DNA of 64,000 nt from Thermodesulfobacteriota bacterium (GCA_965216785.1 OZ244197.1:2336001-2400000); one strand, 5' to 3'; positions 16,927 to 57,107 are shown, counted from the stretch's first letter. The notes: a model not told the origin generated them from the sequence alone. Numbers and translations: made by a program.

Positions 16927-18102
16927 TTGCAGGAGAAACAAAGACGCAACTGGCTTGGAAATACTACTACTGTCGTCTTTTTACTGGCGATTCTTGGCGC
17001 GCTGATTTATGGTGCTGCAGTTTTCTACAACGGCTACATCCAGGATATTAAGCGTGGCGAGAACGGAGTTGCGGCGATTCAAGTATTGGACGAGTTGAGA
17101 GGCTCGTTCCTTGAGATGAAGCAAGAGGAATTAACCTTGCTTCAGTCTACCGACCAGACGCGCGCGATTGCCGGTATTGAAAACTCGATAAACCGGCAGC
17201 GCCAGAGGCTGTCTACTTACCTCAAACTCGCGGACTATAACGAGGAAATTAGAAGTACCGCTCCCAAACTCATGGTCAGCTTTGAGGCCTGGGCGTCACT
17301 TGAGCTGGATCTGGTGAACAGTAAAGCGGCTCTTCAAGCCGATCCGGGTATTAGAGCCGATAATAGTCAGATAGGATTTCTCGTACAAAGAAGCTTGTCG
17401 TCGTTCCTAAATGTCATGGACGTTCTGGGGGAGGGTGAGAGACCCATAGAAGAGGACATTAAAGCAGGAGCCGCGGCGGCTGACGGTCTGTTTACGAGCA
17501 CACTTGTGTTCGTAGCGTATCTGATCTGCCTTGCGTTCTGGTGGGTGTGGTCGGCGGCCGGCAGAGAGAGACGGCACTACAAGAACGTGCGCGAGTTCGC
17601 GCATATGAGTAATACCGACAACCTTACAGGACTCATCAATCGCGTTGTATTTGAAGACAGGCTCTCCGCCGCGATTGCGGGAGCGCGCCGCTACGGCAGC
17701 AGCGCCGGGGTCTTATACTTTGACCTTGACGGTCTAAGGGAATTGAACGTAAAGAAGGGATATCAATCAGGTGATATAGTCCTCAAAGAGGTTGCGCTCA
17801 GGCTTCAGCAATATACCCGCGAGATGGATACGGTGGCCAGAGTTGGTGATGACGAGTTCGCGGTTCTGGTAACCAACCTGAAGCAAAAGGAAGATGCCCA
17901 GGTAGTTGTGGACAAGCTTAAAAACGCCCTGACACAGCCGATTGAGCTTAACGGCGAGCAATACTCGCCAAGCGTTAGCATAGGCGCTTCGGTGTTTCCC
18001 TACGATGGGGAAGAGCCCGAAGAGCTCGTCAATAATGCGAACTCCGCTATGTATGAGGCAAAACAGGGATCTAAACCCAACGTTGCTTCCATCCAGCACT
18101 GA
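16927..18102 (+). CDS. Membrane GGDEF-domain protein (GDDEF variant)
   Basis: Two TM segments around a helical sensor; DNLTGLINR, DLDG, REMD I-site, RVGDDEF. Confidence 0.9.
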   Translation: MQEKQRRNWLGNTTTVVFLLAILGALIYGAAVFYNGYIQDIKRGENGVAAIQVLDELRGSFLEMKQEELTLLQSTDQTRAIAGIENSINRQRQRLSTYLKLADYNEEIRSTAPKLMVSFEAWASLELDLVNSKAALQADPGIRADNSQIGFLVQRSLSSFLNVMDVLGEGERPIEEDIKAGAAAADGLFTSTLVFVAYLICLAFWWVWSAAGRERRHYKNVREFAHMSNTDNLTGLINRVVFEDRLSAAIAGARRYGSSAGVLYFDLDGLRELNVKKGYQSGDIVLKEVALRLQQYTREMDTVARVGDDEFAVLVTNLKQKEDAQVVVDKLKNALTQPIELNGEQYSPSVSIGASVFPYDGEEPEELVNNANSAMYEAKQGSKPNVASIQH

Positions 18103-18114
18103 TCAATAATGCTA

Positions 18115-18165
18115 CTCAGCTCTTTAGGCTCTTATACAGCTCGTCGTGGATAGAGTCTTCGAGCT
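18115..18165 (-). repeat. att-like duplicate of the 3' end of the glutamate-synthase-family gene
   Basis: 18115-18148 is identical to 21235-21268 (34 bp); similarity continues to about 18165. Confidence 0.93.
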
Positions 18166-18246
18166 TAAAAAATGTAGAAAAGTAATACTATTCAAATTAG
18201 TATATCTATATATAGGAAGAAAATTGAAGTTGAAGGTTTAGGTAGA

Positions 18247-20691
18247 CTAACCGTTTAATCTTACAATGTATCCTTCAAAATCATCAGCTAATTCTAAGTC
18301 AAATTTCTCAAAAATACGTATCCACACTTTTGTCTTAAGATATTTTTCTTGTTCATCTTCATTACCAAATTCTTTAAGCCAATCGGGTGGTTCTGAAATG
18401 AATTTATCTAGTAGGTCTCGATTCTCAGAAAAGAATTCAATATTAATGTAAAATATATCTTTCTCAACAAATTCTGGGTTATCCTCCGGCATAAGAGGCG
18501 AATATTGTACTAGTTGACCTAACTGCTTTTTATTTAATAGTATTATAAGATCATCTATACCAGGAATAATAAAACTGAATACCGGGATCTTTTTATATGT
18601 TCCTACTCTTTGTTCCTTCTGCATATTATCATGATATTCTCTTTGACTTGAAATAAAATTTTCATTTATTTCCTTAAACTTATACAAAGAAAAACGAGTA
18701 GCTAATATTACTACATCATCTGAACTGTCAAATAAATCAATTTGTTTAAGAAACTCTTCTCTTGTTACTTCAATGCACGTTGATGCAATTTTAGCATATA
18801 GAAATGAATTCTCCGCTTGTGCTAGATCTCTGCCATAATTTTTAGCCCAATCTCTATAAGTTACATGCCACTCTTGAAAAAAGATGGCTTTTTCATCAAT
18901 TTTATTGATGCCAAATCGATTCAGTTTAGTATTAATGTATGTCATTTTTTCTGAATATAAATTGATACTCATAAACATGTTTCTAATTGTACTATGTTGA
19001 TTAAATGATGTTACAAAATCATCCTCGAATTCAAGTATTTTTGCTGAACTTGGTTTTAATTCTTCTGCCCGTTTTTTAAATTCATTTTCTGCCATTTTTT
19101 TTATATCTTCGAAATATTGGATTATGCATCTCAGAAATATTTCCTCTATATCATTTTCACTAAAATTCAATTCAGACAAAAATTGCTTCTCATTGCTAAG
19201 ACTTTTAGTGATATTGATATAATCATTTATAAAAAACTTGAGATCTTGCAGTCTATATATATCTATCTCTTCAACGAACCCAAATCTATTCTTTGTAATC
19301 TCAAATTTTTCAGGTTCATATAAGTTAGAATCAAATTTTATAACTCTAGCTAGTACTAGTATGAAATAGCGGTTTAAGTATATTTCTTGTCCATGATGAC
19401 CTTCCCAGCTATTCAACCTACGCTCGAAGAACGGTTTATCAAAATAAAATTTCATCAGACTATTAATAGTGGTAGGTGTTATATCATGACCAGCCCATTT
19501 TGCATCTGAGTCAGGAGGTTGTTTATATTCCCAGATAAAACGAATATAATCTGGTTTCTCTTTGAATAGGCAATAACTTCCTATAGCAAATGCAATTTCC
19601 AATATGCTAATAAATTTAATTTTATTGTCGAAACCGTCATAAATGTCTTTTTCAATTTGATAAGTGTATTCTTGCTGTTGAATATTAAAATATGGTTTTA
19701 AGATATCTTTAAGTTCTGTAAATTTGGCTCTGCAATGTTCTAAATCTTTCAGAACCGTGATATTTTCTGAATCGTTGTACAGAGTCTCTAATTTTTCTTC
19801 TATATTGTGTCTGTTATCTATCGATCTGTATAATTCAATATCCGATTGCATGATTAAATGACCATATTCCCATATTCTATTTATTCCGTAACTTGATAAG
19901 GATATTCCGTCAATCAACATAGATATTAGATGCTGAAATATTTCGAAGCGTCCATATGAAATAATTGTTTTTGCAGAAGAGAGGAAATGTTCATCGAAAA
20001 TTGACAGATAATATAGATTAAATTTTTTTTCAGGTTGTCCTAATAGATTGAATACTATATTTGTGTACCAATGAACTGATGAAGAATAAATAGAACGATC
20101 ACCAATTTTTCCACTATATTTCAAGAACAATATGGTAGTAATCTGATTTAAATATCTTAATATAGTCCTTATGTGTAGTTCATTATTCTCATCTTGAGCT
20201 AATTTGCCTAATACCATTTCAATTCGATATATGGCATGTGCAGAAATTTCCTCATTCCCAACTTTTAATGCAGATTCCCAGATTTTACCAAAGTAACTTA
20301 AAAATAAATCGAATAAACCTGTTTCAATTTCGGTTTCGGATATAATATCTTTCTCGGCTAACTCGGCCTGCATAGAACCGTCAATATTAAATCTTGGACT
20401 CGGGAGGTTTAATTTTGGTTTTATTCGATACTTTGCAAATGAAATCAGATATTGATTGTATTTATGTTTGTCTTCCTTTTTTAATTCATAGAACTTAATG
20501 ACATAATGTTCGAGACTGTCTAGTATTTCTAAAACAGTTTTATTTTCGTAGCGTGATGTTTTAGTTACAGCAATATTAGTTAATTTCTCTAGAGCAAATA
20601 TGAAATCGCCAATATCTTGTTTTTTCCTAAAAAATACTTTCAGCATGGTCTCGTAATTTTTGAGATATAACCCCTTCAATATTTGTAACAT
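18247..20691 (-). CDS. Large hypothetical protein; probable C-terminal part of a frameshifted gene of about 960 aa
   Basis: 814-codon ORF in AT-rich DNA, overlapping the upstream ORF at a T6 run. Confidence 0.75.
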   Translation of the reverse strand: MLQILKGLYLKNYETMLKVFFRKKQDIGDFIFALEKLTNIAVTKTSRYENKTVLEILDSLEHYVIKFYELKKEDKHKYNQYLISFAKYRIKPKLNLPSPRFNIDGSMQAELAEKDIISETEIETGLFDLFLSYFGKIWESALKVGNEEISAHAIYRIEMVLGKLAQDENNELHIRTILRYLNQITTILFLKYSGKIGDRSIYSSSVHWYTNIVFNLLGQPEKKFNLYYLSIFDEHFLSSAKTIISYGRFEIFQHLISMLIDGISLSSYGINRIWEYGHLIMQSDIELYRSIDNRHNIEEKLETLYNDSENITVLKDLEHCRAKFTELKDILKPYFNIQQQEYTYQIEKDIYDGFDNKIKFISILEIAFAIGSYCLFKEKPDYIRFIWEYKQPPDSDAKWAGHDITPTTINSLMKFYFDKPFFERRLNSWEGHHGQEIYLNRYFILVLARVIKFDSNLYEPEKFEITKNRFGFVEEIDIYRLQDLKFFINDYINITKSLSNEKQFLSELNFSENDIEEIFLRCIIQYFEDIKKMAENEFKKRAEELKPSSAKILEFEDDFVTSFNQHSTIRNMFMSINLYSEKMTYINTKLNRFGINKIDEKAIFFQEWHVTYRDWAKNYGRDLAQAENSFLYAKIASTCIEVTREEFLKQIDLFDSSDDVVILATRFSLYKFKEINENFISSQREYHDNMQKEQRVGTYKKIPVFSFIIPGIDDLIILLNKKQLGQLVQYSPLMPEDNPEFVEKDIFYINIEFFSENRDLLDKFISEPPDWLKEFGNEDEQEKYLKTKVWIRIFEKFDLELADDFEGYIVRLNG

Positions 20692-21130
20692 ACTGATTGA
20701 TACGTATCATAAACCTCCAAAATACCAAAATATTTATTATTGACCACACAAAATATATCACTAACAAATATGGACTGGAAATTCCAATAAATCTGAACAA
20801 AATGCCAAACATAATACTTACTAGGAACAAAAGGTATTGAGACTTATATAGAAATTCATCGGTGAGTAAAGATGCTATCTCTCCATCATAATCTTTCGTA
20901 ATATTAGATACAACCTGAACACTTATTGGAATTGATAAACCAATAAATACCCCTTCGACTGTGATCACGTCTTGTATAAAAGTTGCATTAGTAGTTAGTG
21001 AAAATAGTTTCTGTATATATGATGGAGCAGGATTGCCAAAGTAAAAAGAATTAAATGTTAATCCTATTACAAAGACTAATAGAAATAAGGTAAATGCTAC
21101 CGAGAAATTGTATAGATTTGAACGATTCAC
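20627..21130 (-). CDS. Hypothetical membrane protein (about 4 TM); probable N-terminal part of the split gene
   Basis: Four hydrophobic segments; ends ATT TTT TAG. Confidence 0.7.
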   Translation of the reverse strand: MNRSNLYNFSVAFTLFLLVFVIGLTFNSFYFGNPAPSYIQKLFSLTTNATFIQDVITVEGVFIGLSIPISVQVVSNITKDYDGEIASLLTDEFLYKSQYLLFLVSIMFGILFRFIGISSPYLLVIYFVWSIINILVFWRFMIRINQYVTNIEGVISQKLRDHAESIF

Positions 21131-54699: not shown

Positions 54700-54728
54700 T
54701 TGATACTAACGTTCGTTTTAATTATAAT
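54700..54728 (+). promoter_or_regulatory. Near-consensus sigma70 promoter
   Basis: TTGATA-N17-TATAAT. Confidence 0.8.
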
Positions 54729-54734
54729 TTGAAG

Positions 54735-54811
54735 TAAGAGAAGCAGAAGTCTCCCTTGTTAATCAATCCTTATGTAAGGGCGGGAAGTTTAAACACTTTC
54801 CCGCCTTTTTT
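54735..54811 (+). ncRNA. Candidate small RNA of about 75 nt
   Basis: Bounded by a promoter and an intrinsic terminator; no credible ORF; contains CTCCCTT. Confidence 0.55.
54779..54811 (+). terminator. Rho-independent terminator
   Basis: GGCGGGAA..TTCCCGCC stem followed by T6. Confidence 0.88.
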
Positions 54812-54817
54812 ATTTCA

Positions 54818-55270
54818 ATATTCACTCGCGGGCGAGGGGCCTCTGCCATCGCGGGCGCCGTGGACATAGTCCTTAACCTTCAGAGCGTCACGCCCGACAC
54901 CCTGCGCCTGTCCATAGTAAAGCACCGCATACAGGGCTCGCGCCCAGATATCTACATGCGAAAAGCAGGAGACGACAAGTTTGAGGTGTGCGGGGAGGTG
55001 GGGATTGCAACAGAGCCCGGAGTAGGGATGTACCGTGTGCAGGAGAGGATTATTGAATTTCTGGACGGCGAGACAGAGCCGGTGCATAGGAAGCTGATAT
55101 TTGAGGACGTGCAGGACGAGACAGGGGCTAAACAGAGAACAATCGAGCGAGGGCTTGAGGAGCTTATGGCCCTCGGCAGGGTTACAAAGGTGAAAAGGGG
55201 TTACTACATGCTCACAGAGTTAGCGCCGCAAGCGCCAACCCTAGGGTTTGGCGGGAATGGCGGGAAGTGA
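54818..55270 (+). pseudogene. 5'-truncated RepA/AAA_25-type helicase with C-terminal wHTH-like segment
   Basis: Frame upstream of GTG 54860 reads GRGASAIAGAVDIVLNL..KHR; Walker A/B part absent. Confidence 0.7.
55214..55269 (+). repeat. Left 56-bp inverted repeat (internally palindromic)
   Basis: 50/56 match to reverse complement of 56897-56952; centred on CCCTAGGG. Confidence 0.92.
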
Positions 55271-55278
55271 GGGGGGCA

Positions 55279-55911
55279 TCATCCATCAATTAAGAAACCT
55301 GTATCACTTTCCTTTGATACCCCACTACGAATAGAGCGAAGGGCAAAGCTAGAATCTTGCATGTCATTATGAGTATTTTTTATGATGACTTTTTTGACGT
55401 CTAAATTATGGCCATGATACACTATGTAATAATAGTTTCCATCATTTAGCACATCCTTATGAAGAAGTAATGTTCCCATGCTACGTTTGCTTACCCAGTT
55501 ATTATCACCAAGATATTTATTGCTCTTGAAAAATGTAAACTCAGTATTTTTACTGTTCTTAAAAGGCTCCACCCACTTTATTTTTTTTGCAATTTTATCT
55601 TCTACATGAAGGTTTTTTAAACTGTGATGAGGAATAACAATATCTAACAATCGCCACAGACCGTCATTAATTTTTTTTGCTTTCCATCTACTGATATGTC
55701 TTTTTTCTAATGAATCTTCACTATGTATAGTAGCTTCTCTCGTAAAAGAAGTTTGACAATTTCCATCCTCATGAAGGCTTGTTTTAATCGTTCCTAAAAT
55801 GCTACGTGCCGCCACATATATATCATTATTGTGTGTCCAAACTCTCCAAACAGAAGAATTTATATCATCAGGTTTCCCCAATGCAAATCTTATTACATTA
55901 GACTTAGCCAT
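55279..55911 (-). CDS. Hypothetical protein (AT-rich cargo)
   Basis: 210-aa ORF; no family recognised. Confidence 0.75.
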   Translation of the reverse strand: MAKSNVIRFALGKPDDINSSVWRVWTHNNDIYVAARSILGTIKTSLHEDGNCQTSFTREATIHSEDSLEKRHISRWKAKKINDGLWRLLDIVIPHHSLKNLHVEDKIAKKIKWVEPFKNSKNTEFTFFKSNKYLGDNNWVSKRSMGTLLLHKDVLNDGNYYYIVYHGHNLDVKKVIIKNTHNDMQDSSFALRSIRSGVSKESDTGFLIDG

Positions 55912-55968
55912 AACCTATAATATATTTAATTTGGAGATTAGTTGGTAGTGATATTGAATCTAATTTAA

Positions 55969-56835
55969 ATGTTTTATACACTTGTTGGAATGGACGAACA
56001 AGAACAGAATAACAATCAAGATTACAGTAAAGATTTAAAGATATACCGTCTGATTGAAAAATATTTAATACCTATAGCCATTATTCTTATATTAGTAGTA
56101 TTCGTCTTCTATATAATTGTTTTCTCTGACGGACTTAGTAATGAACAAGGTCACTGGGGGTTATTCGGGGATTATTTTGGGGGAATACTAAATCCTATAC
56201 TAAGTTTTATTACAATTATAGTATTGGTTTTCACTTTAAGACTTGGCTATCAAACTCTTGTCATATCAAAGGAGGAACTAGAAAAAGCTACTGATATGCT
56301 CAAATTGGCTAAGGAAGAAATAAAACTTACTCAAGTTGCTCTAGAACAATCAAAGGAGGAAGTACAGCTTGCTAGAGAAGCTACCCAAAGACAGGTCGAG
56401 CATTTAGAGAAAGAATCTTTAAAAATTGAGATCTCTACGATTTTAAAAGAAATTGATTCGGATATACAAAGTATTTTCAATATAATCGTGGATTTTGATT
56501 CAGCTTTTAGATACGGTCATTATTTTTCTGCTACATCCACAGAAAATATATCAAAAAGGAAGAGTTACGATGAATTATCCCGGAATGATAAATTCCAAAT
56601 AAATAGACTTCACGATTTATTAGCAAATATGGATACTTATATAAATACTATAGATGATTTATTCAATAGACCACCTTTGTCATTGTACTATAAAGTGAAG
56701 TACTGTAGGACAGCAAAAAAAATACAAAGTTATGTTCCGGATGATTTTAAAAAATTTGAGATTTTAGGTAAAGAAGAATATAAAACTATGATCACGCCAT
56801 CATATTATCCAACACCCACCACCCCCACCCCCTAG
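55969..56835 (+). CDS. Two-TM coiled-coil protein resembling the N-terminus of putative abortive-infection proteins
   Basis: WGLFGDYFGGILNPILSF followed by a coiled coil; AT-rich. Confidence 0.7.
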   Translation: MFYTLVGMDEQEQNNNQDYSKDLKIYRLIEKYLIPIAIILILVVFVFYIIVFSDGLSNEQGHWGLFGDYFGGILNPILSFITIIVLVFTLRLGYQTLVISKEELEKATDMLKLAKEEIKLTQVALEQSKEEVQLAREATQRQVEHLEKESLKIEISTILKEIDSDIQSIFNIIVDFDSAFRYGHYFSATSTENISKRKSYDELSRNDKFQINRLHDLLANMDTYINTIDDLFNRPPLSLYYKVKYCRTAKKIQSYVPDDFKKFEILGKEEYKTMITPSYYPTPTTPTP

Positions 56836-56859
56836 TGTTGGCAATGGCGGCAAAGATTA

Positions 56860-57102
56860 AAAGATGAGATTCTGAGACAAGTTCAGAATGACAGACCACT
56901 TCCCGCCAATCGCGCCAAAGTATAGGGTTGGCGCTTGCGGCGCTAACTTTGTTTGTCATTCCGGCCAAGCCAGTCATTGCGAGCGTAGCGAAGCAATCTC
57001 TTGGGGGCTTGGTAGCAAATGCCGTTAGGGATTGCCGCGGTCGCTCTGCTCCCTCGCAATGACAGCAAAAGATGAGATCCCGGATCGGTGTCCGGGATGA
57101 CA
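56860..57102. repeat. Cluster of REP-like palindromes
   Basis: Units at 56860-56893 and 57068-57102; inverted pair 56973-56999 / 57028-57063 (GTCATTGCGAG..CTCGCAATGAC). Confidence 0.85.
56897..56952 (-). repeat. Right 56-bp inverted repeat
   Basis: CACTTCCCGCCAATCGCGCCAAAGTATAGGGTTGGCGCTTGCGGCGCTAACTTTGT. Confidence 0.92.
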
Positions 57103-57107
57103 AGCTC

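Follow-up and report, generated by a model that had tools for sequence, protein, structure and literature searches.

Paired Iteron Palindromes Beside a Truncated Helicase Gene: Probable Relics of a Small Helicase Element

The Locus and Its Immediate Surroundings

The window, that is, the whole stretch of 64,000 nucleotides analysed, belongs to a genome referred to here as G000. Between a PTS enzyme I gene on one side and an EamA transporter on the other lies a cassette of two AT-rich genes, accompanied by the end of a helicase gene and several palindromic sites. In order along the window, the features are as follows.

54700..54812, plus strand: promoter-like site TTGATA-17-TATAAT, a short (~75-nt) non-coding stretch and a terminator; present at the same locus in G001 and G002
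54821..55270, plus strand: 5'-truncated helicase gene, with the end of a RepA-type ATPase (RGRGASAIAGAVD) and a complete winged helix (KQRTIER)
55214..55269, plus strand: site A, an iteron palindrome of GCGCCG/GCGCCA, CCCTAGGG and TGGCGG twice; encodes the last codons of the helicase
55279..55911, minus strand: cargo ORF1, 210 aa, an orphan, GC 0.33; its stop lies 9 nt from site A
55903..55942, plus strand: s1*, probably a decayed orthologue of site s1 in G002; overlaps the start codon of ORF1
55969..56835, plus strand: cargo ORF2, 288 aa, GC 0.32; orthologue at the same locus in G002
about 56795..56855, plus strand: s2, a third, degenerate site; an older resident site behind ORF2, overlapping its stop
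56897..56952, minus strand: site B, an inverted copy of A, with fixed inner differences (ATAC, CGAT) common to site B of the second genomic copy
56953..57103, no strand assigned: cluster of genome-wide hairpin repeats of the GTCATT.../...ATGAC type; one more lies at 56866-56893

The initial annotation had described this region as two divergent AT-rich genes within 56-bp inverted repeats that include a 26-bp perfect stretch, and in these respects it is borne out: the arms (55214-55269 and 56897-56952) are complementary at 50 of 56 positions with a longest perfect run of 26 nt (55218-55243), the arm repeat is recovered by genome-wide BLAST at E 1.8e-13, and the GC contents of the two genes, 0.33 and 0.32, compare with 0.46 for the genome. 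The third palindrome that it placed at the end of ORF2 (56795-56849) is likewise real, overlapping the ORF2 stop and collinear with an intact site in G002. By the order of core and TGGCGG this site is read as pointing in the same direction as A, the pairwise scores alone (24 versus 27) not separating the two directions, and it matches model R1 at E 0.003, R1 having been built including s2. Three things had been overlooked: the left arm is part of the coding sequence at the end of a truncated helicase gene, the genome contains a second copy, and a probable fourth, decayed site (s1*, 55903-55942) emerges from the collinear G002 alignment, model R1 not detecting it. Nor are the 56-bp arms the bounds of the element, as had been proposed, for homology with the second copy continues ~215 nt further left, across the helicase tail.

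The unit at 54700..54812 is likely resident rather than part of the cassette, since it is kept in both G001 and G002; with its near-consensus promoter and its terminator behind ptsI, it is a candidate small RNA. Rfam gave zero matches in the window or in seven helicase loci. Elsewhere in the window, a 3-kb stretch (18001-21000) has the lowest GC, 0.30-0.32.

Of the two cargo genes, ORF1 has a single homologue (46% identity) and no Pfam, PHROG or PADLOC match, its Atlas matches all fall below 0.9, and its structure model (pLDDT 38) is unusable. ORF2 encodes N-terminal membrane segments and a coiled coil, and its N-terminal part is similar to "putative phage abortive infection" proteins.

Relatives give this locus a history. 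In G002 the ORF2 orthologue lies between two direct sites, together with further genes, and in the alignment the second of these sites corresponds to the third palindrome of the window and the first to the decayed stretch at 55903-55942. G001 has other genes and one site at the same locus; the non-g1 intervals, among those listed, have other genes and no recognisable site. In run X5, from a strain ~95% identical, one site stands ~125 nt after 54811, with neither tail nor cargo (depth 7). Given the G002 alignment and the single-site locus of X5, the window is read as layered: tail, A, ORF1, s1*, ORF2, s2, B. Further, in G002 both ORF2 and its site belong to the resident DNA of this locus, so A and B may have come to surround pre-existing DNA instead of arriving with it as one unit.

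A Second Copy With Different Cargo

Whether the repeat flanks different genes elsewhere, a point raised by the initial annotation, is answered by a second copy 1.34 Mb away (G000:C1:1047593-1050086; L005:11594-14087). It has a helicase tail and sites A and B, and these enclose a type II restriction-modification pair, a TdeIII-family endonuclease and a methylase. The two tails are 91% identical over 277 nt and are cut at different points, and the outer flanks of the two copies are unrelated. Site B of the second copy is also inverted and is split by a 47-nt genome-wide repeat (core, 1050016-1050064); this repeat occurs at ~55 other places in G000 and also splits a site in G002 (L087:2642-2720). 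Given that the inner bases of the two B sites agree with each other and differ from those of the two A sites, so that A-type and B-type sequences lie on the same sides at both loci, both are read as descending from a common helicase-A-cargo-B layout in which the cargo has been replaced. The open frame spans the whole helix in both tails, with a dN/dS of ~0.18 over 89 codons, a low value that may date from intact parents.

A diverged, B-like half site (G000:C1:2519754-2519790, L209; R1 E 0.13) adjoins two AT-rich genes, which encode 341 and 355 aa; a search beyond these genes for a partner site found none.

The Helicase Family

The open frame at 54821-55270 (GC 0.58) encodes the C-terminal third of a helicase (149 aa), devoid of the DnaB N-domain and the Walker motifs, and its last codons form the left arm. 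Relatives occur in 11 of the 60 other genomes searched, including 7 of 10 within genus g3, and full-length matches at E<=1e-30 occur in 11 of 120 class members, G000 not being among them. An intact relative has ~470 aa and carries PF00772 and PF13481. In its structure model (pLDDT 77) the DnaB N-domain matches 1b79 (Z 15.3), the ATPase matches RSF1010 RepA (1g8y; Z 15.9, rmsd 2.5 over 178) and the winged helix at residues 391-457 matches 9f27 (Z 11.5, rmsd 1.4 over 65).

A search of G000 for a full-length helicase with the G004 or G014 proteins as queries found none. A longer helicase of the same lineage is encoded on a metagenome contig (L110), where it is cut by the contig end and is 85% identical over the 39 shared amino acids; the flanking genes on that contig are 82-89% identical to those of G000, and its helicase sits where G000 has none. 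Searched against G000, the L110 protein has a sole match, a 24%-identical helicase in an integrase-bearing island. That island (G000:C1:96183-104008) encodes a distant 513-aa DnaB-N/ATPase helicase whose 3' end carries TCCAAAA/CTTTTGGA iterons; these differ in type from those of the arms and are single-copy. G000 also has no PF01541 (GIY-YIG) match, one of UvrC size (~600 aa) included, against 32 of 32 family genomes, through either an assembly gap or a real loss, and the assembly may therefore miss an intact helicase as well. The metagenome scan gave at least 597 stretches, with at least nine true among the matches listed, and 13 pattern matches in viral contigs, from one weak pattern, included no relative.

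In g3 the helicases share a conserved promoter-RNA-terminator leader (L103:2880-3150, L104:4410-4650, L024:11380-11560, L110:3795-3960), which is often interrupted by repeats and has no Rfam match; its strong terminator hairpin covers AAAGGAG, and the leader may be an attenuator or a copy-control RNA. In the five g3 genomes searched, the helicase loci and their surroundings gave no PF00589 match. The G004 helicase has host genes on either side; several other g3 helicase contigs are short or end near the gene, and an integrase may lie beyond their ends. Three g3 helicases are themselves broken (two in G022, one in G032). The same helicase family is carried by an integrase-bearing satellite in G014.

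Sites and Their Match to the Recognition Helix

Behind most family helicases lies an iteron palindrome, consisting of two short repeats, a spacer with a TATA/TAGG core and two inverted repeats; none was recognised behind the helicases of G036:C77 or G021. The sites are 55-70 bp long, and the core comprises a few bases (TATA/TAGG) within GC-rich spacers. The arms of the window are iteron palindromes of this kind, and the description of them as origin-like palindromes holds. Strict generic iteron detectors found 0 and 1 of the G000 sites, being too strict for the degenerate type.

Iteron type and predicted recognition helix go together in all rows compared (15 of 15), where the iteron labels were read by eye, the L103 site is mixed, and the divergent helicases (G021, G028, two from G036, G056b) and the second G000 tail were left out.

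DxRT[VI]ER helix: CGACA iteron, 5 of 5
DxRTVFR helix: TGACA iteron, 3 of 3
non-Asp R[ST]xER helix: CGCCA iteron, 5 of 5, the window locus included
KTx[ND]R helix: GGACA iteron, 2 of 2

The helix of the window, KQRTIER, falls in the CGCCA class, and CGCCA is the iteron of the window's own arms. In trees that are mostly unresolved, two supported nodes show helix and site moving jointly between ATPase lineages; the ATPase of G022a is sister to that of G022b (97/92), and its helix to that of G016a (95/92). The agreement of helix and iteron is consistent with binding, while the covariation can be plain linkage given that the helix adjoins site A. The repeats are very probably the cognate sites of the truncated helicase.

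Distribution, Pairs and Stacks of Sites

Model R2, trained on g3 sites, finds sites in 10 of 10 g3 genomes (4-45 matches, both strands counted) and in both of the other two g1 genomes, with none in the other 48 relatives and none in G000. Model R1 has matches in 13 of 33 family genomes; in G000 it recovers four sites along with weak ones. The integrase-bearing or satellite-like copies (G014 and the two in G056) each show just one site, their own. G036, of another family and with a lone helicase, contains four additional copies of its own site type between genes; independent dispersed ACCCAAAAACCC-type sites lie at G036:C21:35106-35461, C82:5535-5590 and C48:18752-18769, one of them beside two host-unlike genes.

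The 37 fetched loci hold 101 distinct sites, with up to 22 per genome. Neighbouring sites 201-2600 nt apart are of the same type in 21 of 29 cases (chance 0.30), 12 direct and 9 inverted, a pairing whose p-value (4e-6) is overstated because the loci were partly fetched for showing pairs and the genomes are kin. The interior between such same-type pairs has a median GC of 0.45. Among sites stacked within 200 nt the same type recurs in 5 of 24, and among those beyond 2600 nt in 3 of 6. Where a helicase-adjacent site has a downstream partner (n=10), 8 pairs score as inverted and 2 as direct, a contig end truncating one of the direct pairs. Some sites stand alone between host genes, and both the 3' and the 5' ends of genes carry sites. 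Stacks without cargo, in which three to five sites differ in iteron type, occur at L168:2938-3576, L170:3022-3343, L186:1711-2135 and L197:2472-2678, at shared hotspots behind pckA and between a transglutaminase-like gene and mqnC (gene names by eye from translations).

At one locus (G019:C101) the leader-helicase unit lies between 73-nt direct copies that are 99% identical, and the orthologous locus of G032 has one site and no helicase. This is the pattern that would be expected from insertion of a one-site circle, or from loss between direct sites. The cargo includes PIN/DUF433, HEPN-like and small GIY-YIG genes. In addition, two small secreted-protein families lie between or beside sites at several loci (L024:8210-8890, L104:3446-4138, L193:2152-2880, L187:2192-2653, L172:2957-3427, L198:2340-2855), one of them presumably having an IPTL-type C-terminus ("IPTL-CTERM"). 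The sites may drive the expansion of these two families.

Is the Cassette Mobile?

The initial annotation had suggested an invertible or non-autonomous cassette lacking a transposase or recombinase. No recombinase was found nearby: G000 has no PF00589 match within 180 kb (the nearest is 184 kb away) and no PF00239 match within 1.2 Mb, and thus no linked invertase, with 15 tyrosine-recombinase and 2 resolvase-family matches elsewhere. The term non-autonomous holds. Inversion is not supported: no joint of an inverted form is among those listed for the contigs of runs X1, X2, X4, X5 and X6 (rare forms drop out of contigs), the diagnostic A and B bases are same-sided at both copies, and same-type pairs in relatives are as often direct (12) as inverted (9). 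In X2 and X4 a single contig crosses from 55246 past the right arm, and its depth over the cassette matches that of the flanks, which is what a relic would show. The contigs revealed neither a circle nor amplification nor a joint, and no target-site duplication was found at the cassette.

Three candidate rearrangements were rejected. The one joint of opposite strands traces to a hairpin repeat that sits 15 kb off in the same contig; a joint of 55275 to 56900 belongs to the contig of the second copy's cargo; and a candidate excision in X1, where depth is lower over the cargo (275 versus 436), was not repeated in X2 or X4, the break at 56817 having a tip of only 10 nt.

A Proposed Helicase Element Without an Integrase

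The reading favoured here, with moderate confidence, is that the cassette is a decayed copy of a small, integrase-less helicase element, that its two repeats are likely the sites where the helicase binds and loads (minimal origins), and that the genes between matching sites would be turned over by site-to-site recombination. The replication and mobility that this assigns to the cassette family are inferred. In the proposed mechanism, the winged helix would bind the iterons, and the helicase would load at the site, open the DNA and recruit host primase via its DnaB N-domain. Local copying would yield site-bearing circles or free ends, which would pair with another site of the same type through host recombination or template switching. 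Such pairing would insert units with a duplicated site, and loss would leave solo sites. That the helicase itself promotes copying and recombination between same-type sites is about an even proposition; the helicase is not known to have strand-exchange activity. In G000 the cassette is probably fixed, since both helicase copies are without their 5' part, and both copies are probably stranded relics.

Foremost among the other explanations, though itself unlikely, is passive debris: integrase-bearing satellites would have revisited intergenic hotspots and decayed to helicases and origins, leaving immobile sites whose cargo was swapped by ordinary homologous recombination between relatives. The integrase-bearing G014 has the same helicase family and the 96-104 kb island of G000 a distant one, the sites cluster at few shared loci, and both G000 helicases are truncated, all as this account would have it. 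It fits poorly with the intact g3 helicases that have a conserved leader and no integrase, with fetched loci that on their own contain as many as 22 sites in one genome when satellite origins are single-copy, and with the 99% direct duplication around one helicase unit.

Less probable still is that the sites hitch-hike with hairpins cut by small GIY-YIG single-strand nucleases (Ssn-type), the helicase merely supplying single-stranded DNA. The hairpins in the window resemble the SRM/NTS repeats of Ssn nucleases, and Ssn cuts such repeats as single strands, as set out in PMC11893778. SRM-like hairpins abut site B on both sides, and small GIY-YIG genes stand directly behind a site or between two at five g3 loci. 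Against such an origin, small GIY-YIG genes are also found in g2, g5 and g6, with no or almost no dispersed sites; the hairpins are genome-wide whereas the sites are few; and many cassettes begin 20-50 nt from a site with no hairpin between.

An operator function, in which the winged helix, even as a truncated remnant, regulates cargo or neighbouring genes with no replication involved, is more improbable again. The sites are without the ~100-bp AT-rich centre of SaPI origins and may for that reason serve as operators instead; some stand alone among host genes, and both G000 remnants keep an open helix frame under the low dN/dS given above. That ratio, however, may be a legacy of intact parents, the two tails being cut at different points. 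A predicted terminator also lies just upstream of the remnant, sites occur at gene 3' ends as well as 5' ends, and the direct duplication around a helicase unit is left unexplained.

Finally, an invertible segment acting as a phase-variation switch, or a MITE-like transposon with 56-bp terminal inverted repeats and an enzyme supplied in trans, is suggested by the inverted arms with their 26-bp perfect outer run, the 8 of 10 inverted helicase-adjacent pairs and the recombinase matches elsewhere in G000, but is largely refuted and very improbable, given the single orientation in the contigs of five runs (in X2 and X4 a single contig, as deep as its flanks, crosses from 55246 past the right arm), the same-sided inner bases of A and B at both loci, the lack of a target duplication, a left arm inside coding sequence, and the commonness of direct pairs and solo sites.

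Comparison With Known Systems

P4 alpha and its ori form a comparable rep-ori module. In integrons, too, gene-sized cargo lies between imperfect palindromes, site-ended cassettes stand in tandem, and the cargo includes defence and toxin-antitoxin-like genes; the present family differs in having no IntI near its loci and in sites that are iteron arrays, spread over many loci and paired in either relative orientation. For the ATPase and the N-domain, the best matches in structure and in sequence are RSF1010 RepA and the host DnaB helicases, but the family has a fused winged helix and no RepB or RepC partners in the ORF lists. A transposon with terminal inverted repeats would not have, as here, its left arm internal to a helicase tail common to the second copy, with no target duplication.

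The closest functional parallel is the Rep-ori of SaPIs and PICIs, whose Rep1, Rep2 and PriRep5 are self-loading helicase-initiators. According to PMC9371898, a SaPI origin immediately follows rep, has two or more iterons to either side that point in opposite directions, and is bound by the C-terminal winged helix; intact family relatives likewise have a C-terminal winged helix, and family sites have at least two opposed iterons on each side, starting at the end of the rep frame. Unlike these initiators, the family combines a DnaB N-domain with an RSF1010-RepA-type ATPase, not SF3 or SF6, and has no primase. SaPI origins measure ~300 bp with a ~100-bp AT-rich centre (bioRxiv 10.64898/2026.10.17.759575), whereas family sites measure 55-70 bp and have no such centre. 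The family is also without integrase, att sites and packaging genes (an integrase is present in the G014 cousin), and has many sites per genome, with several specificity types side by side.

In organisation the parallel is with RAYT/REP-BIME elements, for which PMC2817692 describes a mobiliser gene with its cognate palindromes on both sides, protein and repeat sequences that vary together, dispersed mosaic clusters and lineage-specific abundance, as in the present family. Here, by contrast, the protein is a helicase (DnaB-N/AAA_25/winged helix) without an IS200/IS605-type tyrosine transposase, copies number tens rather than hundreds, and pairs bracket whole genes. In its workings the family resembles a SaPI/PICI rep-ori module and in its organisation RAYT/REP, yet it belongs to neither, since it has no integrase or long AT core for the one and no transposase for the other. 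No description of this Dadabacteria helicase/site family was found in the open-access literature.

Implications

The window locus alone is a modest result, a fixed relic. Beyond it one may, tentatively, envisage a class of gene-shuffling elements with neither nuclease nor recombinase, in which a DnaB-type helicase that loads itself, and whose winged helix can be re-coded, seeds a 60-bp origin across the chromosome and mobilises the genes between sites of its own type, with orthogonal helix/iteron types coexisting and nesting. In the same speculative vein, the cargo would comprise defence genes, toxin-antitoxin-like pairs and expanding secreted-protein families, and the element would be a helicase counterpart of RAYT/REP or integrons. 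If true, bacteria capture and move gene-sized cargo, restriction-modification and abortive-infection-like genes included, by means of a replication initiator instead of an integrase or transposase, and mobile-element finders would miss such helicase/origin cassettes. The natural series of helices and iterons, differing by one or two residues and by one to three bases, offers a direct test of how a self-loading helicase recognises its origin. For the Dadabacteria themselves, the helicase sites are a candidate explanation for paralogue expansions.
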